Shown: piece after piece, positions 10,866 through 58,118 of the stretch
Layout: each line of letters starts with the position of its first letter
Numbering within the stretch: the first letter of the stretch is position 1
Origin: Alphaproteobacteria bacterium
GTDB lineage: Bacteria > Pseudomonadota > Alphaproteobacteria > UBA828
Length of the DNA: 64,000 bases
NCBI GenBank assembly: GCA_963667785.2
Contig: CAXXMU010000001.1
Coordinates: 32,001-96,000, forward strand
Direction of reading: 5' to 3'
The notes under the pieces: generated by a model
Told to the model about the DNA's origin: nothing
Databases searched by the model: none
Seen by the model: the letters and a program-made list of their open reading frames with translations, nothing else
Translations under genes and position numbers: made by a program

Positions 10866-11543
10866 TCAGTCCGCGTCGAGCGGCCCCTCTCCGCCGGGAT
10901 AGCAGAAGGACGCCCGGGGCGCGTAGAAGCCGAAGGTGATCTCCAGCGGCGACTTCGGCCGCAGCGCGTGGCACGAGTGGTCCGGCGCCAGGAACTCGAG
11001 CGAGAGAAGCTCGAAGTCGTCCACAGGCTCGCCCACATAGGCGTAGTTGCCGCTCGTCAGGCGACCATCGACGGCCGTGATGTAGCGCAGGTGGCCGCGC
11101 GCGGTCTCGCCGATGCCGGCGCCCACGCGGGCGACGCTGCGGATGATCGGCTCGTCGTCGTCCGCATAGGTGATGGCGGTCAGGCGGTCGCCGTCGAGAT
11201 CGAGCGTGGTGCGGCCCGGCGTCGCCGGCACGCCGCGCTTCGCGGCATAGTCGCGCATCACCGGGCTCGAGTTCAGGTAGTGGGTCCACCAGCGCCCCGG
11301 CGTTCCGTCCTCGAGGTCGAGCCCGGCGAGATCGAGACCCGCGTAGGTCAGCGAGTAGGCGCCGAAGTGCGAGGTCTGCTCGTCCCTGTCGACGACATAC
11401 TGGTTGATGAAGATCGCCCGATCCTCGGCCGGCGCGAGCCCCGCCGGCAGCAGCGCGGCCGCGGCCGCCGGATCCTCCGGCACCCAGCAGAAGTAGAGCA
11501 TGCGGGAATTGACGATCAGTTGCGGTGCGAGCGGCAGCGCCAT
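10866..11543 (-). CDS. Acetoacetate decarboxylase-like superfamily protein
   Basis: AAALLPAGL, FGAYSLTY pattern and length typical of the ADC-like fold. Confidence 0.6.
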   Translation of the reverse strand: MALPLAPQLIVNSRMLYFCWVPEDPAAAAALLPAGLAPAEDRAIFINQYVVDRDEQTSHFGAYSLTYAGLDLAGLDLEDGTPGRWWTHYLNSSPVMRDYAAKRGVPATPGRTTLDLDGDRLTAITYADDDEPIIRSVARVGAGIGETARGHLRYITAVDGRLTSGNYAYVGEPVDDFELLSLEFLAPDHSCHALRPKSPLEITFGFYAPRASFCYPGGEGPLDAD

Positions 11544-11570
11544 GTCTCTCACTCCCTGCGTGTGGTTTGG

Positions 11571-12734
11571 CTATCCCGATCCGGCGAGTCGCTTCCGAAT
11601 GGCCTCGAATGAAGGATAGAGGCGCAAGTCCTTGCTCATGATCGTACCGGCGCCGTAGCCCCGGAAGGATGTACCTGCGGTGATCCAGGAGTAGCGATCG
11701 GTGAAGCCCCAGAGCACCACGTCTTCGGTCGATGGGCTTTTGAGCGCACCGAAGAAGACATTGCTGAACAGAGCTGCCTGTTTCTTGAGCTTCTTCGCCG
11801 TTACCGGCTCGCGTACGCGCACGTCCAACTCAGTGATGTGGGTGCTGAGGCCGAGGGCGGCGAAGCGTTCAAAGTTTTCGACGACTGCGCTGGACTTCGG
11901 ATAGTCCAATCCTGGCTCAAGATGGAATTGGAACCCCACCCCGTCGATCGGAGTGCCCTGCTTAATCAGGTAGGCGACCAACTTGTAGTATTCCTTGAGC
12001 CGGTCGTACTTGTTGTAATCCTGACCCAGAAAGTCGGCACCCCATTCATTGATGATCAGCTTGGCATTCGGGTCCACGCGGCGCGCGTGCTCGAAGGCGA
12101 GCTTGACGTAGTCCGGCCCTATCTTCTCGAACCACACGTTCGGGGAGAAGAGCACCCCATCGACTCTACGGGCACCGAACTGCGAACCCAATGGTTCGTT
12201 CACGACTATCCAATCGCTGATTTGTCCGGCGTAGCGCGACATGACGGTCTCGATGTACTCCTGCAGCAGGGCGATCGCTTCCTCGCGCGACATGTCCTTT
12301 TCGTGCACCCACGCCGGCGTGGGCGTCCAGCCGCCGAACATGTCGTGGCCGGAGGGCACTCCGAAGACCAAGGTATGTCCGCGCACCTGCTGACCGTGCT
12401 TTTGCGCGGCGGTGACAACCTGGTCGAGCGCCCAGAAGTCCCAATGCTCCGGCGTCGGCCGGATGTCGGTCATGTAGGCGCCGTACTCCGGCACCACCAG
12501 CGAGAAGTGGCGATCCACTAGCGCCATGTACGGGGGATCGTAGAACCCGCCCGGGGATACTGCCGTGCCGATCTTGAGGCCACGCTGGTCCGCGAGGTCA
12601 CGCAACGTCGGCCCCTGATCGGACATTGCCTGATCGTCAGCCGCCAAGGGTGAGAATGCGGCCCAGGCTCCCAGGACGACAGCCACGACTGCGGCCAGGG
12701 CCGGCAGGGGACGTGCTGTGCGGGTCATGGCCAT
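11571..12734 (-). CDS. Secreted glycoside hydrolase family 10 (endo-1,4-beta-xylanase-like)
   Basis: Signal peptide; VRGHTLV, WIVVNEP (acid/base), IDGVGFQFH, HITELDV (nucleophile), WGFTDRYSW; visibly lower GC than neighbours. Confidence 0.88.
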   Translation of the reverse strand: MAMTRTARPLPALAAVVAVVLGAWAAFSPLAADDQAMSDQGPTLRDLADQRGLKIGTAVSPGGFYDPPYMALVDRHFSLVVPEYGAYMTDIRPTPEHWDFWALDQVVTAAQKHGQQVRGHTLVFGVPSGHDMFGGWTPTPAWVHEKDMSREEAIALLQEYIETVMSRYAGQISDWIVVNEPLGSQFGARRVDGVLFSPNVWFEKIGPDYVKLAFEHARRVDPNAKLIINEWGADFLGQDYNKYDRLKEYYKLVAYLIKQGTPIDGVGFQFHLEPGLDYPKSSAVVENFERFAALGLSTHITELDVRVREPVTAKKLKKQAALFSNVFFGALKSPSTEDVVLWGFTDRYSWITAGTSFRGYGAGTIMSKDLRLYPSFEAIRKRLAGSG

Positions 12735-12810
12735 GTCCTCCTTGGCGTGTTCGGGCGGCGCGGGCGGGCGCGGCCCTGCTGCGACCCGCCGCCCGCGTCC
12801 CGATTGCGCC

Positions 12811-14214
12811 TCAGCCGGCCCAGACGTTCTCGCGGACGAGGTCGTTCTGGGTCGCGATGATGCTCTCCCGCAGGGTCTCGACGAGCTGGTCGATCTGATC
12901 GCGGGTGAGCGTCAGCGGCGGCGAGAGCACGTTCATGTGGCCGAGCGGGCGCACCAGCAGGCCGCGCTCCCGGCAGTGGTGGGTGATCCGCGCGCCGATC
13001 TTGGCATCGAGGTCGAAGACCTCCCGCGTCTCCTTGTCCTTCACCGCCTCCACGCACATCATGAACTTGCTGCCGCGCACGTCGCCGATGAGCGGCAGCG
13101 TCAGAAGCTCGCCCAGCCGCTCCTCGAAGTAGGGGCCGACCTCGCGCACGTGGCTGCACAGGTCCTCGCGCTCCATGATCTCGATGTTCTTCAGCGCCGC
13201 GGCGCAGGAGACCGGGTGCCCGGCATAGGTGAAGCCGTGGGTGAAGAGCGCGCCCTTGGACTGGGGCACGCTGATGACCTCGTAGATGGCATCGGAGAAG
13301 AGCGTCGCCGCGTGCGGGATGTAGCCGGACGTGAGCCCCTTGGCCGAGGTGATGATGTCGGGGGTGATGTCGAACACGGGCTCCGAGGCGAAGAAGTGCC
13401 CGAGCCGCCCGAAGCCCGTCACCACCTCGTCCGAGATGTAGAGCACCTCGTACTTCTCGCACACCGCCTTGGTGCGGGCGTGGTAGCCGGGCGGGGGCAC
13501 GATCACGCCGCCGCCGCCCATGATCGGCTCGGCGATGAAGCAGGCGACGTTCTCCGGCCCGAGCTCAAGGATCTTGTTCTCGAGGTCGGCGACCTTCTCG
13601 TCGCAGAACTCCTCCACGCTCATGCCGGCCGGGCGGCGGTAGGTGTGGGGCGCCGGGATGTGGTGCACCAGGTCGGGCGCGAGGTCGAAGCCGTCATGGT
13701 CGAACTTCACGCCGGTCATGGTCATCGCGAGGTAGGTCGAGCCGTGGTAGGCGTCGACGCGGGAGATGATCTTCTTCTTCTCCGGCTTGCCGAGCCGGTT
13801 GAAGTAGAAGTGGATGACGCGGACGGCGGTGTCGTTCGCCATCGATCCGCCGGTGCCGTAGAAGACGTGGTTGATGGAGGCGGGCGCGAGCTCGGCCAGC
13901 TTCGCCGCGAGCTCCGCCGCCGGCGGCGTCGTCAGATGCGTGAAGGTCGAGTAATAGGGGATGCGACGCACCTGATCGGCCATCGCCTGGGCCATCTCGT
14001 CGCGGCCGTAGCCGATGTTGACGCACCACAGCCCGCCGATGCCGTCCATGTAGCGCTCGCCCTCGGCGTTGTAGACGTAGACCCCGTCTGCCTCCGCCAT
14101 GACCTCCGAGCCTTCCTGCTTGAAGGTCGAGAAGTCCGTCCAGGGATGGATGTTGTGGTGCAGGTCCTTCTGCCGAAGGTCCTCGTTGTCGTACTGGGTG
14201 AAATTCGCCCTCAT
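12811..14214 (-). CDS. Class III (omega-amine) aminotransferase
   Basis: DGIGGLWCVNIGYG, AYHGST, FIAEPIMG, DEVVTGFGRLG, AKGLTSGY, HGFTYAGHP. Confidence 0.92.
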   Translation of the reverse strand: MRANFTQYDNEDLRQKDLHHNIHPWTDFSTFKQEGSEVMAEADGVYVYNAEGERYMDGIGGLWCVNIGYGRDEMAQAMADQVRRIPYYSTFTHLTTPPAAELAAKLAELAPASINHVFYGTGGSMANDTAVRVIHFYFNRLGKPEKKKIISRVDAYHGSTYLAMTMTGVKFDHDGFDLAPDLVHHIPAPHTYRRPAGMSVEEFCDEKVADLENKILELGPENVACFIAEPIMGGGGVIVPPPGYHARTKAVCEKYEVLYISDEVVTGFGRLGHFFASEPVFDITPDIITSAKGLTSGYIPHAATLFSDAIYEVISVPQSKGALFTHGFTYAGHPVSCAAALKNIEIMEREDLCSHVREVGPYFEERLGELLTLPLIGDVRGSKFMMCVEAVKDKETREVFDLDAKIGARITHHCRERGLLVRPLGHMNVLSPPLTLTRDQIDQLVETLRESIIATQNDLVRENVWAG

Positions 14215-14383
14215 CGCGCCCTCCTATCGCTCCACGCGGCACCGGGAGCCTGACTGATCCCGGAGCCTATCGCGGCGCGTGCGCCACGGCTAGCCACGGC
14301 GCCCCTCCCGCGATGCGCGGCGCCGGCGCTGTACATCGGGGCACGGCCGGTCTAAGACCCCCACGCCAGCCCGGAGGACACCC

Positions 14384-14971
14384 ATGAAGCTCTATTCCAG
14401 CCCGGCCACGCCGTTCGGCCGCAAGGCAGCGATCGTCGCGCACGAGCACGGCATCGCGCTGGACGTCGTGAACGTGAACCCGTTCACCTCGGACGAGCTG
14501 GAGCGGCTCAACCCGATCAAGCTCATTCCCGTGCTGGTGCTGGACGACGGCCGCGTGCTCTACGACAGCCACGTCATCTGCGCCCATCTCGACGAGACCG
14601 GCGGTGGCCCGACCCTCTACCCGGAGGCCGACCGGCTGGACTGGCAGCGGCGCATGACGCTGGGCACGGCGCTGACGGAGACGAGCGTCCTCTGGCTCTT
14701 CCAGAAGCGCCAGCCGGCGGACCAGCAGAGCGCCAACCTCAAGACCCACTACGAGAGCAGGGTGCGGCGCATCACGGCCGCGCTCGACGCAGAAGCCGAC
14801 GCGCTCGCGGCCGCGCCCTTCCGCGTCGACCATGTCGCGGTGATCTGCGGCATCGGCCACCTGGAGTTCCGTCACGATGCGGCGTGGCGGGCGGACTGCC
14901 CCCGGCTCACGGCGTGGTACGAGGGCATGCAGGGCCGGCCGAGCGTGGCCGCGACGCAGCCCACGGACTGA
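14384..14971 (+). CDS. Glutathione S-transferase family protein
   Basis: MKLYSSPATPFGRK, NPIKLIPVL, LYDSHVIC. Confidence 0.85.
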   Translation: MKLYSSPATPFGRKAAIVAHEHGIALDVVNVNPFTSDELERLNPIKLIPVLVLDDGRVLYDSHVICAHLDETGGGPTLYPEADRLDWQRRMTLGTALTETSVLWLFQKRQPADQQSANLKTHYESRVRRITAALDAEADALAAAPFRVDHVAVICGIGHLEFRHDAAWRADCPRLTAWYEGMQGRPSVAATQPTD

Positions 14972-14991
14972 ACCCGGCAAGAGGACCATCC

Positions 14992-15714
14992 ATGATCGAC
15001 CTGCACTACTGGCCGACGCCCAACGGCAAGAAGGTGACCATCCTGCTGGAGGAATGCGGGATGCCCTATCGCCTCGTCCCCTGCCACATCGGCAAGGGCG
15101 ATCAGTTCGAGGACTCGTTCCTCGGCATCAGCCCCAACAACCGCATGCCCGCGATGGTGGACCACGAGCCGGCGGGCGGCGGCGCGCCGGTCAGCGTCTT
15201 CGAGTCCGGCGCGATGATGATGTACATCGCCGAGAAGGCCGGCCGCTTCTATCCGCAGGACCTGCACGGCCGCTACGAGGTCAACCAGTGGATCATGTGG
15301 CAGATGGCGAACCAGGGCCCGAAGTTCGGCGAGTTCGGCCATTTCCGCCGGCTCAAGGACACAGAGGGCGACCAGAGCTATGCCATCACCCGCTTCGGCA
15401 ACGAGGTGAACCGGCTCTACGGCGTGATGAACAACCGGCTCTACGACCGCGCCTATCTCGCGGGCGAGGACTACACCATCGCCGACATGATCTCCTATCC
15501 CTGGGCCGTCTACTGGGAATCGCAGGGCCAGGACATCGAGGAGTTCAGGCACTTCAAGCGCTGGTTCGAGGAGCTGTCGGCGCGGGATGCCGTGCAGCGC
15601 GGCATGGCGGCGGGCGAAGACCTGCCCGAAGACCCCGACACGATCCCGGAAGAAGAGAAGCAGCGCCGCCACGCGCTCCTCTACAACCAGCGCGCCCGGC
15701 CCGCGCCGGGCTGA
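14992..15714 (+). CDS. Glutathione S-transferase, YfcG/Ure2p-like
   Basis: WPTPNGKK, ISPNNRMPA, VFESGA, YTIADM; RBS GAGGA before ATG 14992. Confidence 0.9.
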   Translation: MIDLHYWPTPNGKKVTILLEECGMPYRLVPCHIGKGDQFEDSFLGISPNNRMPAMVDHEPAGGGAPVSVFESGAMMMYIAEKAGRFYPQDLHGRYEVNQWIMWQMANQGPKFGEFGHFRRLKDTEGDQSYAITRFGNEVNRLYGVMNNRLYDRAYLAGEDYTIADMISYPWAVYWESQGQDIEEFRHFKRWFEELSARDAVQRGMAAGEDLPEDPDTIPEEEKQRRHALLYNQRARPAPG

Positions 15715-15766
15715 GGGATCAGGGCCTTTCGCGGGCCTTTCGCGTCGGGCGCCTACCCTCTGCCGG

Positions 15767-16381
15767 TTACGGCGCTTCCCCTCGGCTGAGAACGAGTCGA
15801 ATGCCGAGCGCACCGAGGACGATGGCTGCGCCGCGGTCGATATAGGCCTTGGCCCGCATGTAGCGCGTCGAGACTGCCTGCGTGCTCATGCAGAATGCGA
15901 GGGTCGTATAGAAAGCCACCTCGACCAGGAAGTGATTGATCACGATTACGAAGCTCTCGGCAACGGAGAGGCCGGCGGGAAACACGGCGACGAGAACCGC
16001 TGCGGCGAAGAGCACGGATTTCGGATTGAGAAGATTGACGAGGAAGCCCTGCCGGAACGCGCGCTTGGCCGGGGGGATACGCGCCGTGACTGGCGCAGAC
16101 GCGTTCCTCCACATCTTGTACGCCAGGTACAGAAGATAGGCGCCCCCTGCGATTTTCGCGCCGACGTAGACCATCGGGAACAGTTCGAAGACCACGGCGA
16201 GGCCGAGAAGAGCCATCAACGTCCAGAGCGCAGCCATCAGACCGAGGCCGATTCCGACGGCGACTCCGGCCGCGCGCCCCCTGCTTGCGGAGGTATGGGT
16301 GGCCATCAGCAAGGCGGGACCGGGACTCGCGATGGCAACGAGCAGGGCGATGTTGAATGCGACGAGCTGTTCCCACGTCAT
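15767..16381 (-). CDS. LysE/RhtB family translocator
   Basis: SPGPA, GGAYLLYLA, GFLVNLLNPK; hydrophobic; lower GC than neighbours. Confidence 0.9.
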   Translation of the reverse strand: MTWEQLVAFNIALLVAIASPGPALLMATHTSASRGRAAGVAVGIGLGLMAALWTLMALLGLAVVFELFPMVYVGAKIAGGAYLLYLAYKMWRNASAPVTARIPPAKRAFRQGFLVNLLNPKSVLFAAAVLVAVFPAGLSVAESFVIVINHFLVEVAFYTTLAFCMSTQAVSTRYMRAKAYIDRGAAIVLGALGIRLVLSRGEAP

Positions 16382-16504
16382 GACCTGATCCTGTGACGAA
16401 GGCTGTGGGCTGAACGACGACGGCTTACTGCCGGGGGCCTTGCGGCGCTCGCGGGGCAGAGAGCGAGTGACGGGGCGGCACCGCCCGCGTCCTCCGAGCC
16501 CCCG

Positions 16505-17536
16505 TCAGCTCACGGGCTTCCACTCGCCGGCCGGCTTGAGCTTCTTCGCCTCGGGGATCACCTCGGCGCCGAAGCGCTCGATCTGGTCGAGCTGCTCGGA
16601 GAGTTCGCCCGAGGGGCATTCCAGCATGCAGACCGCCATCGAGAAGCCGGCTGCGGCGAGCGCAGCGAGGTCCTCGACGATCTGCTCGGCGGTGCCGGTG
16701 CAGGTGCGGCGGGGCGTGGCCTCCGAGGCCGGATCGCGGGCGTCGGTGATGCGCGCGGTGGCCGCGCACATCATCATGAAGTCGGACGGGCCGCGGCCCT
16801 GCGCCTCCAGCTCGCGGCGCACCTCGTCCTGCAAGGGGGCGAAGCGGCCGGCGTCGACGTGGGAATCGAGGAAGAGCGGATAGAGGCCGTCGCAGAAGCG
16901 CGCCGCGCGCCGGGCGCCGCGGATCGTGTTGCCGCCGAAGACGATGGGCGGGTGCGGGTCCTGCTGCGCCGGCTTCGGGTCCTGGGAGACGTTCCTGAAG
17001 CTGTAGTAGTCGCCTTCGAAGGTGGCGAGGTCGCCGGTCCACGACGCCTTGTAGATCTGGATGCACTCCTCGGTGCGCCGGTTGCGCTCCTCGTAGTCGA
17101 TGCCGACGGCGTCGAACTCCTCGACCATCCAGCCGACGCCGACGCCGAGCATCAGCCGGCCGCCGGAGAGCCGGTCGACGGTCATGAACTGGCGCGCGTC
17201 CGAGAGCGGGTGCCTATAGGGCGCGATGAGCACGCTGGTGGCGAGCTTCAGCGTCGTGGTCTTCACCGCCACCGCGCCCATGACGACGGCGGCGTCCAGC
17301 ATGTTGTGGCGGCGCTGGTAGGCGCGCTGGCCGGAGACGTTCGCGGTGTGGTGGCTCTCCGAATCGTAGGGCATGCAGACATGGTCGGGATACCAGATGG
17401 AGTGGATGCCCGCGCGCTCCGCGGTCTCGGCCACCCTGATCGGGTCCATCTGCTCCACCGGCGTGTGGTGGAGGAACATGTTCACGTCGTCGCGATAGGA
17501 CTGCCCGTGCGTGTTTCCGTAAAGCCCGACTTCCAT
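16505..17536 (-). CDS. LLM-class flavin/F420-dependent oxidoreductase
   Basis: SIWYPDH, LATSVLIAPYRHP, DRLSGGRLMLGVGVGW..EF, PPIVFGG. Confidence 0.88.
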   Translation of the reverse strand: MEVGLYGNTHGQSYRDDVNMFLHHTPVEQMDPIRVAETAERAGIHSIWYPDHVCMPYDSESHHTANVSGQRAYQRRHNMLDAAVVMGAVAVKTTTLKLATSVLIAPYRHPLSDARQFMTVDRLSGGRLMLGVGVGWMVEEFDAVGIDYEERNRRTEECIQIYKASWTGDLATFEGDYYSFRNVSQDPKPAQQDPHPPIVFGGNTIRGARRAARFCDGLYPLFLDSHVDAGRFAPLQDEVRRELEAQGRGPSDFMMMCAATARITDARDPASEATPRRTCTGTAEQIVEDLAALAAAGFSMAVCMLECPSGELSEQLDQIERFGAEVIPEAKKLKPAGEWKPVS

Positions 17537-17683
17537 GATGCTGTCCCCTTCGTTGGCGCAGGCGCTGGCGCGCCGGGATTATGCCGCCCGCGCCGGCTGG
17601 CTGGAAGCGTCGCGCAGACCATGGCCCTGGTGAGAAAGGCGGGCTAGCCTCGCGGCGCCGAACGGTCACGTGGGGGAGCGGCC

Positions 17684-19144
17684 ATGCGGGTCTTCATCGC
17701 CTGTCTCGGAACCGAGACCAACACCTTCTCGTCGCTGCCGACGGGCGAGCAGACCTATCGCGACACCGCCCTCTTCGACGGCGATGCGACCCGCCGCGAG
17801 CCCACCCCCTTCAGCCAGCCGCTCCACATCTGGCGCGCGCGGGCCGAGGAGCAGGGGCACGAGGTCGCGGAAGGGCTTTGCGCCTTCGCCCAGCCGGGGG
17901 GGCGGACGATCCGGCGCGTCTACGAGGACTATCGCGACCGCATCCTGGCGCAGGCGGAGGCCGCGCTGCCGCTCGACCTCGTGCTGGTCAACATGCACGG
18001 CGCCATGGTGGCCGAGGGCTACGACGACTGCGAGGGCGACCTGCTGGCCCGCCTGCGCGCGGTCGCCGGTCCTGACACGGTCATCGGCGGCGAGCTCGAC
18101 CTCCACTGCCACATCACTCCCGCGATGCTGGAGGCGGCGACCGTGCTCGTCACCTACAAGGAGTATCCCCACATCGATATCGGCGAGCGGGCCGACGACC
18201 TGTTCCGGCTCTGCCACGACGCGGCCCTCGGCCGCTCGGCGCCGGTGATGGCCGCCCACGACTGCCGCATGATCAGCATGTGGCGCACCACGGCCGAGCC
18301 GATGCGGGGCTTCGTCGCCGAGATGAAGGCGCGCGAGGGGAGCGACGGCATCCTCGCCGTCTCCTTCGGCCACGGCTTCCCCTGGGGCGACGTGGCTGCG
18401 GTGGGCGCGAAGACGCTGGTGGTGGCCGATGGCGACGAGGGGAAGGCGGCGGCGCTCGCGGCCGATCTCGCGGACCGGCTCTGGGCGATGCGCGAGGAGA
18501 CCCGGCCGACCGCCATCGGCATCGACGAGGCCATCGACAGGGCGCTGGCGAGCGACGGCGGGCCGGTGGTGCTGGCCGACGTCTCGGACAATGCCGGCGG
18601 CGGCGCGCCGAGCGATTCCACCTTCATCCTGGAGCGCCTGATCGCGCGCGGCGTGCGCGATGCGGCCAGCGGGCTCTACTGGGACCCGGTGGCGGTGCGC
18701 TTCTGCATGGAGGCGGGCGAGGGGGCCCGGCTCAGGCTCCGCATCGGCGGCAAGTGCGGCCCCGATTCCGGCGATCCGGTGGACCTCGCCGTCACCGTCG
18801 AGCGCATCGTCGAGAACGCCGCCCAGACCTTCGGCTCCGCCCGCAACGGGATCGGCGATGCCGTATGGGTGCGCGGCGAGGGCGGCCTCGATCTCGTGCT
18901 CAACACCCTGCGCACCCAGGTCTTCCACCCCGACGCGTTCACGGCCGTGGGTCTCGATCCCGCCGCCCGCAAGATCGTGGTGGTGAAATCCACCCAGCAC
19001 TTCCACGCCGGCTTCGCCCCGATCGCGAAGGATATCCTCTACGTCGCGGCGCCCGGTGCGATCGCGCCCGACTTCGCGGCGATTCCCTACACCAGGCTGG
19101 CGACGCCCTACTGGCCCAGGGTGGAAGACCCGTGGGCTGAGTAG
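17684..19144 (+). CDS. M81 family metallopeptidase (MlrC-like)
   Basis: ETNTFS, MHGAM, DCEGDLL, LDLHCH, YPHID, DNAGGGA, VVKS..HF. Confidence 0.9.
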   Translation: MRVFIACLGTETNTFSSLPTGEQTYRDTALFDGDATRREPTPFSQPLHIWRARAEEQGHEVAEGLCAFAQPGGRTIRRVYEDYRDRILAQAEAALPLDLVLVNMHGAMVAEGYDDCEGDLLARLRAVAGPDTVIGGELDLHCHITPAMLEAATVLVTYKEYPHIDIGERADDLFRLCHDAALGRSAPVMAAHDCRMISMWRTTAEPMRGFVAEMKAREGSDGILAVSFGHGFPWGDVAAVGAKTLVVADGDEGKAAALAADLADRLWAMREETRPTAIGIDEAIDRALASDGGPVVLADVSDNAGGGAPSDSTFILERLIARGVRDAASGLYWDPVAVRFCMEAGEGARLRLRIGGKCGPDSGDPVDLAVTVERIVENAAQTFGSARNGIGDAVWVRGEGGLDLVLNTLRTQVFHPDAFTAVGLDPAARKIVVVKSTQHFHAGFAPIAKDILYVAAPGAIAPDFAAIPYTRLATPYWPRVEDPWAE

Positions 19145-19216
19145 GGGAAGCCCGGCGCGGGCGGCGGTGCTATCGTCGGCGGAGTGCGGACTCGAGCAGC
19201 GAGAGGCGAGGGAGCG

Positions 19217-19996
19217 ATGTTGGGAACGGTGGAGAGCATCTGGCGCTATCCCGTGAAGAGCATGCGCGGCGAGGAGGTGGACGAGATCTTCGTCGCTTTC
19301 ACCGGGCTGATGGGCGACCGGGTCTACGCCATCTCGTCGAGCGCCGCGGACCCGGCCTTCCCCTGGCATACCGCGCGGGAGCAGGAGGACCTGGTGCTCT
19401 ACCAGGCGCGCTTCAAGCAGCGTGACGGCACGCTCAAGCCCGACAACATGGAAGAGGCGATGGGCCACCCCGCCAACATCCACGCGCCGTTCCCCGAGGC
19501 GGACGCGTTCGCGGTCGAGGTCGAGCGCCCCGACGGCTCGGTGGTGGACATCGAGGACCCGGCCTTCCTGGAGGGGATCAAGGACAGGTCCAAGGGCGCG
19601 CTCTCGCTCCGCTTCACCCAGCGCAGCCTGGTCGACTGCCGGCCCGTCACCCTCTTCTCCCTGCAGACCGTGGGCCAGCTTGCAGACGAGACCGGCATCG
19701 ACGTCCACAAGCTGCAGTTCCGCGCCAACCTCTACGTCGACTGGAGCGAGCAGGGCGGCTTCTACGAGGACGAGCTGGTGGGCCGCCGGGTCACGGTGGG
19801 CGATGCGGTGGAGCTGATGGTCGTGGAGCGCGACCCCCGCTGCAAGTTCATCACCATCCACCCGGAGACCGCCGAGACCGCGCCGGCGCTGCTCAAGCAC
19901 GTCAACAGGACGCGCGACGGCTTCGCCGGCGTCTATGCGGCGGTCATCAAGGAAGGGCCCGTCAGGGCCGGCGACGAGATCGCGCTGGTGGACTGA
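19217..19996 (+). CDS. MOSC domain protein
   Basis: IWRYPVKSMRGE, GDRVY, FRANLYV, RCKFIT, GVYAAV..G.V..GD. Confidence 0.88.
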   Translation: MLGTVESIWRYPVKSMRGEEVDEIFVAFTGLMGDRVYAISSSAADPAFPWHTAREQEDLVLYQARFKQRDGTLKPDNMEEAMGHPANIHAPFPEADAFAVEVERPDGSVVDIEDPAFLEGIKDRSKGALSLRFTQRSLVDCRPVTLFSLQTVGQLADETGIDVHKLQFRANLYVDWSEQGGFYEDELVGRRVTVGDAVELMVVERDPRCKFITIHPETAETAPALLKHVNRTRDGFAGVYAAVIKEGPVRAGDEIALVD

Positions 19997-20043
19997 GGGC
20001 GGACGCCCAGCCGACATTCCTCCGTTAACGGGAGCATTGCGCC

Positions 20044-23688
<3,645 letters not shown>

Positions 23689-23723
23689 CGACGGGCTCGA
23701 CAGACATCCAGGAGGAGACCGCC

Positions 23724-24125
23724 ATGACGCTCACGCTCGAAGAGGCCAACCGCGTTGCCGCCGGTGCGATCGCGCACGCGGAAAGCCTCGATATCCTGGT
23801 CTGCGTCGCGGTCTGCGACGCCGGCGGCCGGCTGGTCTCCTTCCAGCGCATGGACGGTGCCATCTGGGCCGCCGTCTACGGCTCCCAGGGCAAGGCCGCG
23901 GCGTCCGCCGCCTTCGGCCGGCCGAGCGGCGACCTCACCGAGCGGGCCGACCATCCCACCTTCCGCGGGATCGTCGCGGCCGACGGCGGCCACATGATCC
24001 TCGGCCGGGGCGCCGTGCCGATCGTGCGCAACAGCCAGGTCGTCGGCGCCTGCGGGGTCGGCGGCGGCACCGGCGAGGAGGACGAGGAGTGCGCCGCGGC
24101 CGGCGTCGCGCGCATCCAATCATGA
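23724..24125 (+). CDS. GlcG/HbpS heme-binding family protein
   Basis: VAVCDAGG..RMDGA, GAVPI, VGACGVGGG...D..CA; RBS GGAGGAG. Confidence 0.85.
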   Translation: MTLTLEEANRVAAGAIAHAESLDILVCVAVCDAGGRLVSFQRMDGAIWAAVYGSQGKAAASAAFGRPSGDLTERADHPTFRGIVAADGGHMILGRGAVPIVRNSQVVGACGVGGGTGEEDEECAAAGVARIQS

Positions 24126-24196
24126 GTCCGCGCACGCCGGCGTCGCGCGCCTCTGATCTGGAACAGCCCGCGCCTTCCGTCCAGTACGCGCGCCGC

Positions 24197-26772: not shown

Positions 26773-26921
26773 GGAGGGAGCCTCCTCTTCCCGCCTCGTG
26801 CGCGCCGCCGGCGCGGCGGCGGCCACAGTGGCCGAGCGCGCACCGGGCCGCAAGCGGGTGGAGGGAGGCGATGCAGGCGGGGATGGGCCGCGGCAGGGCT
26901 CTCGCCGCGCTTGCCGGGCCG

Positions 26922-27266: not shown

Positions 27267-27288
27267 CTCTCGCCCGCTCCCCGGCCCA

Positions 27289-28404: not shown

Positions 28405-28556
28405 CGTGGCCTCCTAGCCGCGTCGGATCGGCGCCGATGGTACACGCGCCTCTGTGCGCGCACTATCGGCCGCGCCATGACTTGCCGCCGCTGCTAGGCT
28501 AGCATCGGCCGAGGCCCCCGCGCAGGACGGGCGCCGAGCGCGGAAGGGAGAGCGCG

Positions 28557-29966: not shown

Positions 29967-30053
29967 AAGGCCGCCGGCCGCATTCGGCCCCGATCGGGCG
30001 TCCAACTCGGAAGGCGGACGCCCGGCCTGGGCTCGGCAGGTCTTAGAGGGCCG

Positions 30054-40182: not shown

Positions 40183-40212
40183 CCGCCCTTCGCCCCACCC
40201 CGGCCCATACGC

Positions 40213-45746: not shown

Positions 45747-45840
45747 GCCCTCCTCCAGGAATTCGCACGGCGCCTCTCGCCGCAAGCATCCGTGCGATGC
45801 TGTAACAGCCTGGAAGGTATGCCAGTTTCGCGATATCGCG

Positions 45841-45990
45841 CGTCCCCAATAGTGGGGAGAATCGGCGGGTTTTTGCCTCGTCTCGGGGCGATCGCGCGAG
45901 AGCCGGCGACCTCGGCGGCGCCCCTCGTCCGGCGCCCTCGCACACGCACGCGAGCGGTGATCTCGCCGCTTCTCCCCAATGTTGGGGATG
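45841..45990. promoter_or_regulatory. Pair of 27-bp inverted repeats, each with a CCCCAA-N2-(G/T)TGGGG palindromic core
   Basis: 45841-45867 matches the reverse complement of 45964-45990 at 23/27; lies between the divergent adhesin and LuxR genes. Confidence 0.65.
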
Positions 45991-46160
45991 CATGCGTCCG
46001 TGATATTTATGTGTGTTATATGAGATATCGGCATCACGTTCATAACGTATTAGCATGTCGGCATGCGATGGAGCGGAACGCATCTGCGGCACCGGAGGGC
46101 GTGTGCCACCGGGACCGGACATGATCGGCCCACCGGGCGTGCGTGCGCGAAGGCGCGGTC

Positions 46161-51385: not shown

Positions 51386-51413
51386 CCGACCGGACTCTTT
51401 ATCGCTCACGGCA

Positions 51414-51531
51414 GCCGGCCGTCCCGCGATTCCGCGCGCCTGCCGGCCGTCATTCGATACCGCGCGCCTGCCGGCCGTCATTCGATACCGCGCGCCTGCC
51501 GGCCGTCATTCGATACCGCGCGCCTGCCGGC
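51414..51531. repeat. Tandem repeat, 4 x 28 bp (GCCGGCCGTCATTCGATACCGCGCGCCT)
   Basis: One degenerate copy 51414-51441, three identical copies 51442-51525, a 6-bp partial copy; no spacers. Confidence 0.92.
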
Positions 51532-51645
51532 GCGACGGCCGGCGCCTCCGCGTCGCGCGTCCACGCGCGCGGGCGCGCGATGGCGCCGCATAAGCGGCGG
51601 GCCGCAGTCGCGACCTGTCGCGTATCCGTCAGAGACGGATTCGCA

Positions 51646-53958: not shown

Positions 53959-53980
53959 ATCGGGCGGAAGGACGATCGCC

Positions 53981-54394
53981 GTGGACGCGGGTCCCCTCAC
54001 GCCCCCCTTCGACGAGAGCGCCGCCCGCGCCGTCGTCCAGGCCTTCGAGGACGCCTGGAACCGCAGGGTCGCCGAGGAGATCCCCGGAACCTGCACGGCG
54101 GACACGCGCTGGCGCTATCGCGATGCGTTCGTCGAGGGGCGGGACAGTATCGTGCCGTTCCTGCGCGCGCGCTGGCCGATACAGGAGCACTACCGGCTGA
54201 GGAAGGAGCTCTGGAGCTTCACCGCCAACCGCATCTCGGTGCGCTTCGTCAGCGAGTGGCGTCACCGCGACAGCGGCCAGTGGTACCGGACCTTCGGCAA
54301 CGAGCACTGGGAGTTCGCGGCGGACGGCCTGCAGAGCGTGCTCGATCTCTCGGCCAACGACGTGCCCATCGACGAGGCCGAACGGAGCCTCTGA
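53981..54394 (+). CDS. DUF1348 / SnoaL-like (NTF2 fold) protein
   Basis: PPFD...A...VQAFEDAWN, YRLRKELW, WYRTFGNEHWEF. Confidence 0.88.
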   Translation: MDAGPLTPPFDESAARAVVQAFEDAWNRRVAEEIPGTCTADTRWRYRDAFVEGRDSIVPFLRARWPIQEHYRLRKELWSFTANRISVRFVSEWRHRDSGQWYRTFGNEHWEFAADGLQSVLDLSANDVPIDEAERSL

Positions 54395-54397
54395 GCC

Positions 54398-54433
54398 TCA
54401 CCAGCCGAGCGCGCGGCTCATGCGCCGGGGGTC
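54398..54433 (-). repeat. Orphan copy of the last 12 codons of ggt (direct repeat of 56400-56435)
   Basis: 34/36 identical; both copies translate DPRRMSRALGW*. Confidence 0.9.
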
Positions 54434-56367
54434 TGGGCCGCCTCCCGTCCCGCGATAGAAACGAAATTGCTGTGGAAGGTGGAATTCCCGCCGAGATCGG
54501 CCGGGGCATCGGGGGTTGTCGCGTTCGCGTTTGCTCCCCAGCGGACCATATAGCTCACCAGCAGGCCGGGCTGAACGCGCTCGCTCAGTCGCGCGATGAG
54601 GTTTACCGTGCCGCGTTCGTTCCAGAGCATCACCGCATCCCCGTCCGCAATTCCTTCGCTCACGGCGTCTTCGGGATGAATAAACACGGCCGGCTCCTTC
54701 ACCGCTGCAAATTTGCGGGCAACATTGAACACCTGGCTTGCCTGCAAATGTTGAGTCTTCGGCGTGATGAGACGATAGGGATGTCCGCTGTCCGACGCGG
54801 CCGCGGAATACGCAGGAACGACGAGCTCCAATTTGCCGCTCGCCGTCGGGAAGCGGCCGTCATCGAAGTTGGTGCGTCGGCTATTCGTGCACAGTACCGG
54901 CCCCTCCTGCAGGTCCTCGAAGCGAAGCCCGGTTTCTGCAATGAGCGCGCGAATGACCTCCTCCTCGGTCTCGCGGAAGCACGGCTCCGTGTATCCCATA
55001 TGGCGCGCGATCTCGCGAAACACCCAGTAGTTGGAACGCGATTCGCCAACCGGCTCGATCGCCGGATTGTTGATCTGTGCGTAGTCGTGCCAGTACGAAC
55101 GATGGAGATCGATCTGCTCTGCGTAGGAGCAGGCCGGCAATACGACGTTCGCCCGCTCGGCCGTGTCCGTCATGAAGCTGTCATGCACGACAACGAACAG
55201 GTCTTCGCGCGCCAGACCCTGCCAGACAAGCGCCTGATTGGGTGAGGTCGCGGCAGCGTTCGAATTGTACACATAGAGAGCCTTGATCGCGTCGTCCGCG
55301 GTCAGGGCTTTGCCCAGCGTGACCATGTTGTAGAGGCGTGGGCCTTGGGTTCTCAGTGAGCTGTGACTGATGTCGTTGAAATTCCAGTCGTAATTGGCAT
55401 AGAGAGCGCCGCCGCCGGGGACGCCGACCTGCCCTGTCAAGGCGGCGAGCATGCAGATCGACGACACCATCTCGCCGCCATTCAGATTGCGCTGAAGGCC
55501 AACCCCGATGTGAATCAATCCTGGCCGGTTCTTGGCGTAGAGCTCGGCGAATGCGGTTATCTGCGCATGCGGGACGCCGGTGATGCGGGCTGCATCGTCC
55601 AGCGACACCGACAGGACTTTCTCGCGCAACGCGTCGAATCCGTTTGTCTTCTCCGCAAGGAATTCCCTGTCGATCCAGTCGCGCTCGATCAGGACCCGCA
55701 TGACCGCCATGGCGAGCATGGAATCGGTCGACGGTCTTGGTTGGATGTGCATGTCCGCGACCTGAGCGGAATCCGAGCGGTAGGGGTCGATCACGACGGT
55801 GGGGTGTATGTCCTTCGTCAGAACGTGGCCGTGGACGTTGGTCGCCTTGGGATTCTTGCCCCAGACCACGTAGCAGCGAGTCTTGTCCAAATGAAATGTT
55901 TCAGTGCCGAGCACGGTGCCGAAGATCCTAAGCACCGCCTCGACACCGGCCATGGCGCAGATTTCGGTGCCGACCCGGCTGGTGTTCATCCTGTTCCATA
56001 GCCGGTCGGCAAGGCGATTCGAGACCATGCCCATGTGGCCGAGATAGTGGTACGGCAGAATGGCCTCGCCACCGGATACCTCGATGATGTCGGAAAACCG
56101 GCGGGCTATCGCGCCGAGGGCTTCGTCCCAGCTTGCACGGCGAAAGGGGTCGGACTTGTGCTCCCGCACGAGCGGAAACAGAAGCCTGTCGGGATGGTGA
56201 ACGAGCTCTTCGTAGTGCTGGTAGCGCCCGCACAGAAACCCCTGGGTAATGGGATGTTCGGGATCGCCCTTCACCTCCACGACCTTCCCGTCGCTTACCC
56301 GGGTGAGCATGCTGCACGTGTCGGGGCAGTCTTTCGGACAGACGGACTTGACGGTTCTCGTTGCCAT
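54418..56367 (-). CDS. Molybdopterin-dependent oxidoreductase (DMSO reductase family, cytoplasmic)
   Basis: CPKDCPDTC..C Fe-S motif, WGKNP, PRPSTD, DSFMTDTA..A.VVLPA, IHPEDA; lower GC than flanks. Confidence 0.9.
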   Translation of the reverse strand: MATRTVKSVCPKDCPDTCSMLTRVSDGKVVEVKGDPEHPITQGFLCGRYQHYEELVHHPDRLLFPLVREHKSDPFRRASWDEALGAIARRFSDIIEVSGGEAILPYHYLGHMGMVSNRLADRLWNRMNTSRVGTEICAMAGVEAVLRIFGTVLGTETFHLDKTRCYVVWGKNPKATNVHGHVLTKDIHPTVVIDPYRSDSAQVADMHIQPRPSTDSMLAMAVMRVLIERDWIDREFLAEKTNGFDALREKVLSVSLDDAARITGVPHAQITAFAELYAKNRPGLIHIGVGLQRNLNGGEMVSSICMLAALTGQVGVPGGGALYANYDWNFNDISHSSLRTQGPRLYNMVTLGKALTADDAIKALYVYNSNAAATSPNQALVWQGLAREDLFVVVHDSFMTDTAERANVVLPACSYAEQIDLHRSYWHDYAQINNPAIEPVGESRSNYWVFREIARHMGYTEPCFRETEEEVIRALIAETGLRFEDLQEGPVLCTNSRRTNFDDGRFPTASGKLELVVPAYSAAASDSGHPYRLITPKTQHLQASQVFNVARKFAAVKEPAVFIHPEDAVSEGIADGDAVMLWNERGTVNLIARLSERVQPGLLVSYMVRWGANANATTPDAPADLGGNSTFHSNFVSIAGREAAQTPGA

Positions 56368-56399
56368 GCCCGCTCCTGCGCGCAGCCGGCGCCGGCCTG

Positions 56400-58118
56400 T
56401 CACCACCCCAGCGCGCGGCTCATGCGCCGGGGGTCGGCGGCGCCCTCGATGGCGCCCGTCTCGAGGTCCTTGCGCACCGCGCAGACCCCGCCGGTCCAGT
56501 GCGACCAGTCACCCAAGCGCTCGATGCGGTGTCCGCGCGCGGCGAGCCGCTCGCCCGTCGCCTCGTCGATGCGCCCCTCGACGGTGACGAGGCCAGGATA
56601 AGCTGCGTTTGGCGCGAACGAATCCGGGTGGCTGTGGGTGACGAGACGGGGAGCCTCCACCGCATCCTGCAGCCCCATGCCGAAGACCAGGTGGCCGAGC
56701 AGCGTCTGCAGGTTCGCCTGGATCTGCGTATCGCCGCCCGGGGTGCCGAAGGGCATGATCCAGCGGCTGGGAGAGAGCGCGAAGCAGGGATTGGGTGTGA
56801 GCCGGGGCCGCTTGCCCGGCGCGATGCAGGAGGGGTGGCCCCGCACCGCCCGCGACTGCGCCCCGCGCGAGGAGACCGCGAGCCCGCAGCCGGGCACCAC
56901 CGGCGTGTCCCAGCTCGTGTCCGACGGCGTCGAGCAGAGGCCGTTCCCGTCCGCGTCGATCACGCAGACGATCGAGGTATCGGGCGGCGGCCCGAGCGGC
57001 GCCTCGCTCGCGGCGACCGGGGGAACATGCGCCTCGTGGCCCGGAATCCTGCCGGGAAGGGGCATTCCGGGCGACGCCTTGTGCGGGTCGATCGCCCTGC
57101 TGCGCTCCGCCGCGTAGGGTCGGCCGAGGAGCGTATCGAGGGGGACGTCCACGAAGTCCGGGTCGCCGAGATAGCCTTCCCTGTCGGCGAAGGTGAGCTT
57201 GAGGGTCTCCGCGATCGTGTGGAGATACGCGTCCGAGCCGTGCTCCTGCGCCACCACGCCGGCCGTCTCGGCGATGGAGAGCGCTTCCAGCAGGAAGGGG
57301 CCCTGGCACCAGGCGCCGCAGGTGTGGATCTCCACCTCCTCGCCACCGAGCCGGAAGCGCCGCGAGACCGAGGGCACGACCTGGCAGCGGAACGAGGCGA
57401 GGTCGTCGGCCGCGAGCAGCCCGTCCTCCGCCTTCTGGTGCGCGAGGATGTGGCTCGCGATATCGCCCCGGTAGAACGCACGGCGCACCGCGGCGAGGCC
57501 GGCCATGCGATCGTCGCCCGCCGCGCGCTCCTCGTCGCAGAGGAATTGCAGGACCCGGCCGAGATCGCTCTGGACCAGCCGCTCGCCCGGCTGCGGCACG
57601 GTGCCGCCGGGCATCCAGATGGCGACGTTCTCCGGCCAGTGCCGGAAGTCGTCGGCGTACTTCTGCACGTAGTCGAGCATGACCGGGTGACGGGGGAAGC
57701 CCTCGCAGGCGTAGCGCACCGCGCGTGCCGCCACGTCGCGGAAGGCCATCGTGCCCCATCGCTCCAGGGCCTGGATGCAGGCGTCGGGAGCGGCCGGCAC
57801 CACGGTACGCCGCACCCCGAGCGGGATCTCGCCCCCATGGCGCTGGATGAAGGCTTCGGCGTCGAGCGCCTGCGGCCAGCCGCCGACGCCCGCGATGGTG
57901 ACTACCTCGCCGGTCTCCGCGAGGCGGACGATCATGGGCGCGACCCCGGCGACGCTCACCTGGTCGCTGTAGACCACGCCGAGGGTCAGGATCGCGGCGA
58001 CGCCGGCGTCGATCGCGTTGCCGCCGTTCTCCAGAGCTTCGAACGCGGCCAGCGTCGCGAGCTCATGGCCCGCGCTGACGACATGGTGATGACCACGGGC
58101 GACGGGCACGACGGACAT
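56400..58118 (-). CDS. ggt: Gamma-glutamyltransferase family protein
   Basis: GGNAIDAGVA, ADRE..LGDP, nucleophile DTS, PGKRPRLT, GTPGGD, GAADPRR. Confidence 0.9.
   Translation of the reverse strand: MSVVPVARGHHHVVSAGHELATLAAFEALENGGNAIDAGVAAILTLGVVYSDQVSVAGVAPMIVRLAETGEVVTIAGVGGWPQALDAEAFIQRHGGEIPLGVRRTVVPAAPDACIQALERWGTMAFRDVAARAVRYACEGFPRHPVMLDYVQKYADDFRHWPENVAIWMPGGTVPQPGERLVQSDLGRVLQFLCDEERAAGDDRMAGLAAVRRAFYRGDIASHILAHQKAEDGLLAADDLASFRCQVVPSVSRRFRLGGEEVEIHTCGAWCQGPFLLEALSIAETAGVVAQEHGSDAYLHTIAETLKLTFADREGYLGDPDFVDVPLDTLLGRPYAAERSRAIDPHKASPGMPLPGRIPGHEAHVPPVAASEAPLGPPPDTSIVCVIDADGNGLCSTPSDTSWDTPVVPGCGLAVSSRGAQSRAVRGHPSCIAPGKRPRLTPNPCFALSPSRWIMPFGTPGGDTQIQANLQTLLGHLVFGMGLQDAVEAPRLVTHSHPDSFAPNAAYPGLVTVEGRIDEATGERLAARGHRIERLGDWSHWTGGVCAVRKDLETGAIEGAADPRRMSRALGW

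Follow-up and report, generated by a model that had tools for sequence, protein, structure and literature searches.

Single-gene insertions flanked by long direct repeats at gene junctions of an alphaproteobacterial genome

Gene-content differences among related bacteria are mostly gains and losses of one gene without a mobile element, and the route by which such genes enter is poorly known. In the window considered here (the whole stretch of DNA that was analysed, 64,000 nt, C1:32001-96000), the last 36-45 nt of ggt, a gamma-glutamyltranspeptidase gene, are found twice, on the two sides of a molybdopterin oxidoreductase gene. How did a single gene come to lie between two copies of the end of its neighbor, and has the same thing happened at other places in the genome? 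The initial annotation had claimed seven gene-end duplications in the window. The one at ggt is real; the other six proved to be chance similarity, weak matches, or a small repeat without cargo.

The ggt locus and its empty sites

The ggt gene (positions 56400-58118 of the window, minus strand; Pfam G_glu_transpept, E 1.4e-92) is intact. It is 84-86% identical to the orthologues of the genus over its full length, and its GC3 stays at 0.88-0.95 up to the gene end. The working 3' end of the gene, which encodes ...D P R R M S R A L G W and the stop, is repeat copy A (56400-56444, minus strand). Next to it lies inserted DNA of ~1.96 kb (54443-56399, minus strand), which consists of a leader of ~35 nt that contains a ribosome-binding site, and of the oxidoreductase coding sequence behind it. 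The cargo gene, ~2.0 kb in length, covers 54418-56367 on the minus strand with its ATG at 56365-56367, and matches Pfam Molybdop_Fe4S4, Molybdopterin and Molydop_binding. Repeat copy B (54398-54442, minus strand) is a left-over ggt end. Beyond it the native sequence resumes, and there a DUF1348 gene (53981-54394, plus strand; Pfam DUF1348, E 3.6e-44) converges with ggt.

Copies A and B are identical at 40 of 45 positions. In the core of the repeat, from GACC to the TGA stop, the identity is 34/36, which is the value that had been claimed, and both differences are at third codon positions. Over the same core copy A is one synonymous base (GGG for GGC) away from the genus consensus. The score of this repeat was reached by 0 of 297 random window queries against the same target, and the repeat is the best match in a genome-wide scan of 2770 gene ends. 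The TGA stop of the oxidoreductase (54418-54420) sits within copy B, which supplies this stop and the four codons before it in a different frame than that of ggt; a cargo stop inside the duplicated copy, proposed for several loci, thus holds at ggt. The insert differs from the genome in GC content (0.63 vs 0.70) and in GC3 (0.76 vs ~0.9).

All 11 genus relatives that were read base by base have the ggt site without the oxidoreductase gene and with a single copy of the repeat. Both repeat stretches match one and the same 44 nt in relatives, and the DNA past copy B aligns with the DNA downstream of the ggt stop. The oxidoreductase gene was therefore inserted at the ggt end, and the two copies have a common origin. 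The stop-to-stop gap between ggt and DUF1348 is -3 to -1 nt in 7 of the 11 relatives. The ggt stop is TAG or TAA in eight of them and TGA in both copies A and B. When the entire window was compared with five relatives for synteny, only 51.6-59.0 kb, near ggt, proved collinear, and each locus was therefore searched separately.

The cargo was found neither at the ggt site nor elsewhere in 20 genus relatives. Among 40 relatives searched, oxidoreductase-like DNA is present in G023 only, a member of another genus, at 74% identity; the neighbors of the gene differ there, and it was rejected as a pointer to the donor locus. A scan of 185,579 species genomes for a donor returned only proteins of 34-40% identity from unrelated phyla, with no useful synteny.

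The other repeats of the window and two further events

Each of the claimed repeats was scored against random window queries. The best local scores for the start of the prpD-like gene (claimed as 24/32), the M81 end (19/25) and the LLM end (15/18) are 11-15, and these are equalled by 27%-98% of random queries. The three repeats were rejected as being at chance level. A general caution follows, as gene-end "repeats" of 15-25 nt at 75-80% identity are expected by chance in DNA of 70% GC.

The formamidase end had been claimed as a 27/33 repeat with cargo. The alignment of 27257-27298 with 26889-26931 has 33 of 43 identical positions and one gap, and its score of 21 is equalled by 1% of random queries on a 3-kb target. 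This is not significant because ~66 gene termini were in play at a 1% random rate. With the last 45 coding nt as the query the score falls to 12, which is noise. The yjbR gene that would be the cargo is contiguous with the formamidase gene in 9 of 20 relatives, and the formamidase/yjbR junctions of all five relatives read have only TTCGNCTGA in common (score 6-11). The region that holds the formamidase end, yjbR and the supposed second copy (26889-27298, minus strand) is thus no insertion with duplication: throughout the genus yjbR is kept next to the formamidase gene, and the relatives lack the repeat. One relative, G011, has formamidase without yjbR; it was considered as an empty site and rejected, the neighborhood being different.

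The glcG-like (HbpS-like) gene end carries a tandem near-repeat with a period of ~37 nt and no cargo (24087-24158, plus strand). The claim of a 24/30 tandem stood as far as the repeat itself is concerned, but this is not a case of insertion with duplication. Positions 24087-24121 and 24124-24158 are identical at 27 of 35 sites with an exact core of 15 nt, a score reached by 0.3% of random queries, and lie within a GC-rich hairpin that spans the stop codon. The second copy is present in two of the four relatives read, clearly in G005 and partially in G014. The tandem is a real, small and old hairpin-associated repeat.

The seventh case, a gapped duplication of the ADC-like start, was not borne out either: the junctions of the GH10 xylanase gene (11556-12735, minus strand; Pfam Glyco_hydro_10) have only a ribosome-site-plus-ATG context in common, with a best local score of 10, which is at chance level. 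The GH10 gene, a single-gene insertion, is specific to this genome and lacks a flanking duplication; it was not among the matches listed for the 20 genus relatives searched, and four of four relatives read have the empty site. An ORF of 298 aa is another gain in the window, with no flanking duplication apparent on reading. The duplication is not obligatory, because both of these genes were gained in the same window without it. All the claimed cases other than ggt come down to chance similarity at 70% GC, or to small repeats of old origin.

Is the ggt locus then unique? A scan of the whole genome for repeat pairs, to which a flank-similarity filter was applied, gave two additional events like that at ggt outside the window, each of them confirmed by empty sites in relatives. 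The recurrence that had been proposed therefore applies to the genome, with three confirmed events, but not to the window, where one of seven was real. An enrichment of gene ends for downstream copies was not found: at a score of at least 25 there were 6 real ends against 12 internal-segment controls, and the matches in both sets were mostly paralogues.

The first of the two events is at the P450-RraA junction (C6:897722-899630), where ~174 nt are duplicated and the copies are identical at 45/55 and 67/77 positions. The cargo is a trypsin-like/Sel1 ORF of 55% GC. The history of this locus is more complex than a single clean event, as the upstream copy is interrupted by a MITE and 188 nt of AT-rich DNA and the insert additionally contains a MITE copy. 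Rfam gave only sub-threshold microRNA-like matches at this locus, on the MITE hairpin. The second event (C1:791705-792791) has duplicated 41 nt at an overlapping stop/start junction, with 38 of 41 positions identical, and carries an alpha/beta hydrolase gene of 1005 nt. A homologue of the hydrolase, 81% identical, is present within the genus (G007); it was rejected as a guide to the joints, as it aligns only within the mature coding part. Empty sites with a single copy had been predicted, and the relatives bear this out at ggt (11/11), at P450-RraA, where 10 of 11 have the plain junction, and at the third locus, where all seven relatives that have the locus do.

The repeats of the three events are mutually unrelated in sequence, as had been expected for repeats with no common att site, and vary in length from 36 to ~174 nt. 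The inserts are 1.0-2.0 kb in size, and for the cargoes Pfam gives only enzyme domains and no mobility gene. A central 16-mer of each repeat was counted 1-4 times genome-wide. The copies are already 7-18% diverged. Single genes were added at gene boundaries with the host genes unbroken and no integrase close by, which agrees with the initial annotation. Two or three candidate events beyond these three are unconfirmed. They include C2:880120/881319 (121/131 identical, insert of 46% GC) and C1:408650/411553 (66/83 identical), and at both the relatives are too different upstream to confirm the event.

Origin of the duplication

What process places the end of a gene on both sides of an insert? At ggt a foreign piece was probably inserted with the target duplicated in place through overlapping joints, the presence of gene ends in the repeats arising from gene packing and selection. 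Each end of the foreign piece would have been joined to its own point on the chromosome; the two points would lie 36-45 bp apart with the joints overlapping, and the stretch between the points would then be present on both flanks of the insert. Possible routes are joining to two sister copies and template switching during replication, in which synthesis leaves the chromosome and later returns to it. The joints may lie at microhomologies of 4 nt, with TGAC (left) and GACC (right) as candidates. The right-hand joint is placed at the shared GACC because the G023 homologue ends in ...CAG ACC TGA; with this 74%-identical gene as the stand-in for the donor, both microhomologies could be coincidence. 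Gene ends are found in the repeats because the genes of this genome closely adjoin one another, and selection may act as a filter. An overlap that duplicates a gene end would keep both neighbors whole; the mirror-image event, in which the gene end is deleted, would be lost. The chemistry of joining is inferred here, as are the microhomologies and the part played by selection. The same process would have struck at least two further times in this genome.

The route favored in the initial annotation was homology-facilitated illegitimate recombination. DNA of a related strain with its own ggt end and the cargo would enter by a homologous crossover in ggt and an illegitimate one just upstream of the recipient stop, which would give the order donor ggt end, cargo, recipient ggt end. 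In its favor, both differences in the ggt core lie at third codon positions, and the repeat stops exactly at the ggt stop, where alleles with different downstream DNA cease to match. The genome has ComEC and DprA homologues, and the hydrolase of the third event has its close relative within the genus. However, the ggt cargo is absent from any site in the 20 genus relatives, and both ggt copies have the TGA stop that most relatives lack. Neither GC3 nor the similarity to relatives shifts along ggt as the 3' end is approached (similarity is 88.8% over the final 150 nt and 77-93% elsewhere). This mosaic test gave no signal, but none would be expected either if the donor were a close relative outside the sample. 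The 36-nt core differs at only 2 positions between the ggt copies, too few to tell duplication in place from a donor that is a close relative at this locus.

The two informative events are P450-RraA and the third locus, where bases common to both copies are found in no relative. At P450-RraA these are ACC and 16 nt after the P450 stop, and AGC, CGC and GCC in RraA. At both loci the used copy has synonymous changes only, and the unused copy has changes at codon positions 1 and 2 that alter amino acids. Genome-specific bases in both copies and unconstrained changes in the unused one are what duplication in place followed by decay predicts, and fit that origin rather than a donor allele. On this evidence the donor-allele route appears unlikely.

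Could the repeats instead be the remains of site-specific integration? They would then be attL and attR of small elements that bring a replacement gene end, moved in trans or with the integrase since lost. Direct repeats of 36-45 nt over a gene 3' end are typical of such elements, and 16 matches to the tyrosine-recombinase family PF00589 are present in the genome, along with one each to PF01609 and PF00665. None of these lies within the window, so that the claim of no recombinase or transposase there is true for the three families tested. The nearest PF00589 match on the ggt contig is at C1:452954, and the nearest integrase match is ~360 kb from ggt, 43 kb from P450-RraA and 89 kb from the third event. 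The ggt insert holds one gene only, with ~35 nt before the ATG and the stop inside the repeat; the joint has cost the cargo its own stop codon, which suggests a break at random rather than the defined end of an element. The three repeats, from 41 to ~174 nt, have no common sequence or att core. An origin by site-specific integration is thus highly improbable. Neither Ku nor an RVT_1 reverse transcriptase was found in the genome.

A third explanation is that the insertion took place in two steps, in which slippage gave a small tandem duplication of the junction and foreign DNA came to lie between the copies later. Tandems without cargo do exist, as at the gene end at C6:1049076 (a 28-nt unit present ~2.5 times) and at the glcG-like gene end, and G020 has a short duplicate of the ggt end with filler. 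However, two rare events would be needed at each spot, three times, and the joint between tandem copies is not marked as a preferred landing site. In the relatives read at the three sites there is no cargo-free duplicate of comparable length; the one cargo-free duplicate seen, in G020, has 12 nt. This explanation is very unlikely.

In-place duplication could be one instance of a wider process in this genus, a repeated replication- or repair-linked capture of one-gene-sized foreign DNA at gene boundaries, with any cargo and with target duplications of tens to hundreds of bases, which would have a hot spot at the ggt/DUF1348 junction. We regard this as a doubtful extension. If true, long target duplication would be a general way for GC-rich soil bacteria to gain single genes with little enzymatic machinery.

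Relation to known insertions

[quoted passage not shown] Nobusato et al. 2000 (Gene 259:99) is reportedly an earlier source for it. We know of no bacterial experiment that has demonstrated how such insertions form. Furuta et al. 2010 (PMC2853133) describe repeats of at least 46 bp that overlap gene 3' ends, with no mobility gene. The criteria given there are that the insert is absent from a related genome in which both flanks align, that it is <20 kb and has no mobility gene, that the flanking direct repeat is >30 bp with both copies aligning to one empty-site sequence, and that the repeat is not a multi-copy element; inserts were selected for having both restriction and modification genes (PMC2853133). 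The same authors link such insertions to breaks by restriction enzymes (PMC2853133), and in another article the pattern is recognised for "other DNAs" too (PMC3457768).

The three inserts described here are absent in relatives, flanked by repeats >30 bp (36-45, 41 and ~174 nt), <20 kb and without a mobility gene. Like the published cases they are a few kb of foreign DNA with a GC content unlike that of the genome, and their direct repeats are single-copy in related genomes, vary in sequence and length by site, overlap a gene 3' end in some cases and allow gene fusion at the joint. In contrast to the published restriction-modification cargo, the inserts described here carry a molybdoenzyme gene, a protease-like ORF and a hydrolase gene, and no restriction gene is seen in any of them, which places them outside the published selection. 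The repeats also differ in being diverged, and the targets differ as well: that of the third event is an overlap of a stop and a start codon, and at ggt the stop directly adjoins that of the convergent DUF1348 gene in most relatives. Three pairs of filled and empty sites with ordinary metabolic cargo extend a pattern discussed mainly for restriction-modification systems, and such cargoes argue against a dependence of the pattern on a restriction enzyme.

Homology-facilitated and double illegitimate recombination are known from natural transformation in Acinetobacter and Streptococcus and from E. coli conjugation. The events in transformation resemble those described here in the short linear foreign DNA, the microhomologies of a few bases, the lack of a site-specific enzyme and the one-gene-sized inserts. 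They are mainly an insertion with a deletion beside a homologous anchor, whereas here the target is duplicated and no donor-derived anchor is detectable in ggt.

Phage 21 and e14 at icd are elements that enter at a gene 3' end and bring a replacement end. Genes for tRNA are integration targets of elements as well, according to Furuta et al. (PMC2853133). Imperfect direct repeats with a gene 3' end and an intact target are common to these elements and the three events. Here, however, a single gene is cut at its own stop codon, there is no PF00589 match in the window, and no att core recurs over the three repeats. A transposon or MITE does not account for the events either, as the duplications are variable (36-174 nt) and inverted ends were not seen at either ggt junction when these were read by eye.

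Under the wider capture process considered above, the ggt/DUF1348 junction would have been struck independently in two genomes: in the present one (G000), with a 2-kb insert and a 36-45-nt duplicate, and in G020, where the ggt end has a duplicate of 12 nt with a 6-nt filler and no cargo. True MITEs with inverted ends are found at the same ggt junction in relatives.

Duplication of the ggt end around a single gene

The terminal bases of ggt (gamma-glutamyltranspeptidase, 56400..58118, minus strand) occur twice in the window, in the gene itself (56400-56444, minus strand) and at 54398-54442, with 40 of 45 positions identical and 34 of 36 in the core that runs from GACC to the TGA stop. A single gene lies between the copies, a molybdopterin oxidoreductase (54418..56367, minus strand) for which all three Pfam domains (Molybdop_Fe4S4, Molybdopterin and Molydop_binding) were matched. 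It has a GC content of 0.63 and a GC3 of 0.76, versus ~0.70 and 0.9 in its surroundings. Its ATG is ~35 nt past the ggt stop, and its TGA stop is supplied by the second ggt-end copy, read in another frame. None of 297 random queries against the same target reached the score of this repeat. When the final 45 nt of each of 2770 genes were compared with the 5 kb beyond it was the top match (score 35), whereas reverse-complement and other-locus controls reached a maximum of 22. The repeat is far above chance, and the initial annotation was right to see a duplication with the stop of the cargo inside it.

In 11 relatives of the genus, read base by base, ggt is directly adjoined by the convergent DUF1348 gene (53981..54394, plus strand, in the window), and the two stop codons abut in seven. 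The oxidoreductase is at this junction in none of the 11, and among 40 relatives similar DNA was found only in G023, a genome of another genus, at 74% identity. Since the relatives lack the gene and both copies map onto one 44-nt stretch in them, the insertion is real, as is the single-copy empty site that had been predicted.

The G023 homologue ends ...CAG ACC TGA, the oxidoreductase of G000 (the genome studied here) ends ...CAG ACC CCC GGC GCA TGA, and ggt reads ...GCC GAC CCC CGG. With G023 as a 74% stand-in rather than the true donor, these ends suggest that the right joint falls in the shared GACC, where the cargo would have lost its own stop codon. The left joint probably lies at or just past the ggt TGA, where TGAC is common to the same 74% stand-in, again not the true donor.

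Other changes are seen at this junction. G020 (L003) has 17-18 extra bases, with a second copy of the final 12 nt of ggt set off by a 6-nt filler (CTGGGTTGGTAA TCCCCA CTCGGCTGGTAA); between the copies, two third-codon positions differ. A separate small event at the junction used in G000 would account for this, as would a scar left by an insert since lost. In G019 (L012) a MITE-like element of 268 nt, which has inverted ends (AGCCCGCATATCTCACCAAGGTCACGG...), lies precisely between the stop of ggt and that of DUF1348, and a related insert of 321-331 nt is found at the junction in G013 and G003 (L004/L006). In G000 two same-orientation copies of the AGCCCGCATATCTCACCAAGGTCACGG end (C6:749633-749669 and 753966-754002) flank a three-gene operon. 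Copies of this type of element tend to begin at TAG/CTAG beside stop codons; such sites are among the few that contain AT in 70% GC DNA.

Recurrence in the genome

The G000 genome, of which the window is C1:32001-96000, comprises 4.09 Mb in 14 contigs at ~70% GC, and 3542 genes covering 86% of it were called by codon statistics. At a score of at least 25 the gene-end scan gave 6 matches with real ends and 12 with internal 45-mers, mostly paralogues in both sets, and 0 in each of two other controls. As a class, gene ends show no enrichment for downstream copies. A second, seed-and-extend scan covered all direct repeats 60-6000 nt apart with a score of at least 22 and a length of up to 100 nt. 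It returned 1089 pairs (826 paralogues or long repeats, 240 off gene termini and 23 touching one), and a control at a 100-kb offset returned 96 (8, 82 and 6, respectively). Inspection of the candidate pairs one at a time gave three loci with the ggt architecture, namely ggt, C6:897722-899630 and C1:791705-792791. Recurrence at the genome scale is thereby confirmed by three events, each with empty sites in relatives.

At C6:897722-899630 the whole ~174-nt junction between a P450 gene and an RraA gene is present twice (P450 end 45/55, RraA start 67/77). The insert is a trypsin-like/Sel1 ORF of 55% GC, with its start within the copy of the RraA start and its stop within the copy of the P450 end, and the plain junction is found in 10 of 11 relatives. 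The upstream copy is additionally split by a ~240-nt MITE and 188 nt of AT-rich DNA. At least 13 copies of this hairpin-rich MITE (L094 3289-3526, C6:897788-898025; also in L136 and L139) occur in G000, with many others in the rest of the genus, and an Rfam search of its hairpin gave sub-threshold microRNA-like matches only. At C1:791705-792791 a 41-nt stretch spanning the ATGA stop/start overlap of AMP-ligase and hydrolase genes occurs twice (38/41). It encloses a 1005-nt second hydrolase gene that has a ribosome site of its own and begins with a leader of twin-arginine-like type, and the plain overlap is found in all seven relatives that have the locus. Further candidates at C2:880120/881319 (121/131, insert 46% GC), C1:408650/411553 and C5:44822/48300 were not confirmed.

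A REP-like, GC-rich double-hairpin element starts right at TAG stops at C6:817653-817728, C6:822283-822358, C2:213391-213473 and C2:218155-218237. As many as 59 occurrences of a 16-mer from this element were counted in G000, and the element is a source of false gene-end repeats in scans. In a branched-chain amino-acid permease gene (L095 2050-2135, C6:1049050-1049135), ~2.5 tandem copies of a 28-nt unit made of the last 25 nt of the gene plus 3 nt give two consecutive in-frame TAG stops.

Origin of the copies and mode of joining

It had been suggested that one copy was the end of a donor allele that arrived with the cargo. At the P450 locus both copies have in common ACC, the 16 nt that follow the stop and, within RraA, AGC, CGC and GCC, all absent from every relative. 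The used RraA copy matches the genus consensus, and the differences of the unused copy fall 4, 3 and 2 times at codon positions 1, 2 and 3, a pattern that reads as unconstrained. Of the changes at the third locus, the two in the used copy are synonymous and the one in the unused copy alters an amino acid. No mosaic was found in ggt (similarity to 11 relatives 88.8% in the last 150 nt versus 77-93% elsewhere), and its GC3 is maintained at 0.88-0.95. The shared private bases, the unconstrained unused copy and the lack of a ggt mosaic favor duplication in place. The sequences fit a target that would have been duplicated at insertion, with later decay of the spare copy, and import of a diverged allele end does not appear to fit. 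At ggt, where the copies differ at only two positions, an unsampled, very close donor would be compatible.

As the initial annotation stated, the window has no recombinase or transposase of the three families searched (tyrosine recombinase, DDE_Tnp_1 and rve): none of 16 tyrosine-recombinase matches in G000 is in the window or within ~360 kb of the ggt site, and the single DDE_Tnp_1 and rve matches are both outside the window. No match to Ku or RVT_1 was found in G000. ComEC and DprA homologues are present; such homologues occur in many non-competent bacteria. A decayed or trans-mobilised integrative element is a rival explanation; the three repeats have no sequence in common and thus no att-like core. 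A two-step route of tandem duplication followed by insertion is another rival, as is the donor-allele model. Beyond the structure itself we infer, as moderately probable, illegitimate joining at the level of microhomology. A short foreign fragment would be attached to the chromosome at two points whose order overlaps, with either sister copies or a template switch as the route, and selection would retain the duplicating outcomes because tightly packed neighbors stay intact.

Furuta et al. 2010 (PMC2853133) define insertion with long target duplication by an insert that has no mobility genes and lies between direct repeats of over 30 bp, a sequence which a related genome has only once. Their repeats measure 46-423 bp, some overlapping the 3' end of a gene, and a gene fusion at a joint is reported. 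The pattern is tied there to DNA breakage by restriction enzymes, and according to the authors no experiment explains the process. Among 30 of the 32 papers found to use the phrase, most, to judge by titles and abstract openings, concern restriction-modification systems or Helicobacter. The G000 events have every structural feature of this pattern and depart from it only in the selection rule 'contains R and M genes'. Because the structural features are all present, the events are assigned to insertion with long target duplication, with non-RM cargo. The general idea of gene capture survives genome-wide in three events, but the phenomenon was already described.

Other gene ends of the window

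The genes of 11539-56435, named by Pfam, are ordinary metabolic genes: GH10 xylanase, three class-III aminotransferases, two GSTs, LysE, luciferase-like monooxygenase (LLM), M81 peptidase, MOSC, hydantoinase/oxoprolinase genes, a glcG-like HbpS gene, YjbR, formamidase, PrpD-like, esterase, large repeat proteins, ABC-F ATPase, ABM, DUF1348, molybdopterin oxidoreductase and ggt. Seven duplications had been proposed here, and only that of ggt is real as an insertion with duplication. The prpD start, M81 end and LLM end have best local scores of 11-15, equalled by 27%-98% of random queries, and are discounted. In G013 and G006, MOSC and M81 lie side by side. At the LLM end, LysE is also found in G014 and is absent from the site in the four other relatives read, two of which (G018 and G017) have copies of the ~240-nt MITE between the GST and LLM genes.

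The formamidase-end repeat around yjbR (33/43 with a gap) has a score of 21, which 1% of random queries attain with a 3-kb target. It was rejected as an insertion with duplication: yjbR adjoins formamidase in 9 of 20 relatives, and the junctions in all five relatives read have only TTCGNCTGA in common (score 6-11), without the repeat. At the proposed ADC-like start, the GH10 gene (11556-12735, GC3 0.78, with a signal peptide) lies between an aminotransferase stop and the start of the next gene. The site is empty in all four relatives read, and no GH10 match from 20 relatives is among the matches listed. By these matches and empty sites, it is a genuine one-gene insertion particular to G000; the duplication does not hold, as the two junctions score 10 and share only a ribosome-site/ATG context. 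The tandem repeat at the glcG-like end is real (27/35, reached by 0.3% of random queries) and brackets nothing. It sits in a hairpin across the stop (folding z-score -1.8) and was seen in two of the four relatives read.

A 298-aa ORF (24197-25093) without a Pfam match, found among 21 genomes only in G000 and G018, lies between the glcG-like gene and the hydantoinase B gene, which is convergent and shares 10 nt at its end with the ORF. Compared with 20 relatives, the stretch 10000-30000 has its genes rearranged one at a time within the genus, and the breakpoints fall at the borders of genes; for example, M81 and MOSC are 0.2-3.4 kb apart or unlinked, and formamidase, yjbR and hydantoinase B occur in varying combinations. 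The repeat list of the window is dominated by the internal DNA repeats (324-345 and 939 nt) of two very large, repeat-rich surface-type proteins (40213-46043; Calx-beta, SWM repeat, fn3 and SRCR domains). Directly 3' of an MFS transporter gene, five tandem copies of the 28-nt unit CGCCTGCCGGCCGTCATTCGATACCGCG occupy 51409-51548.
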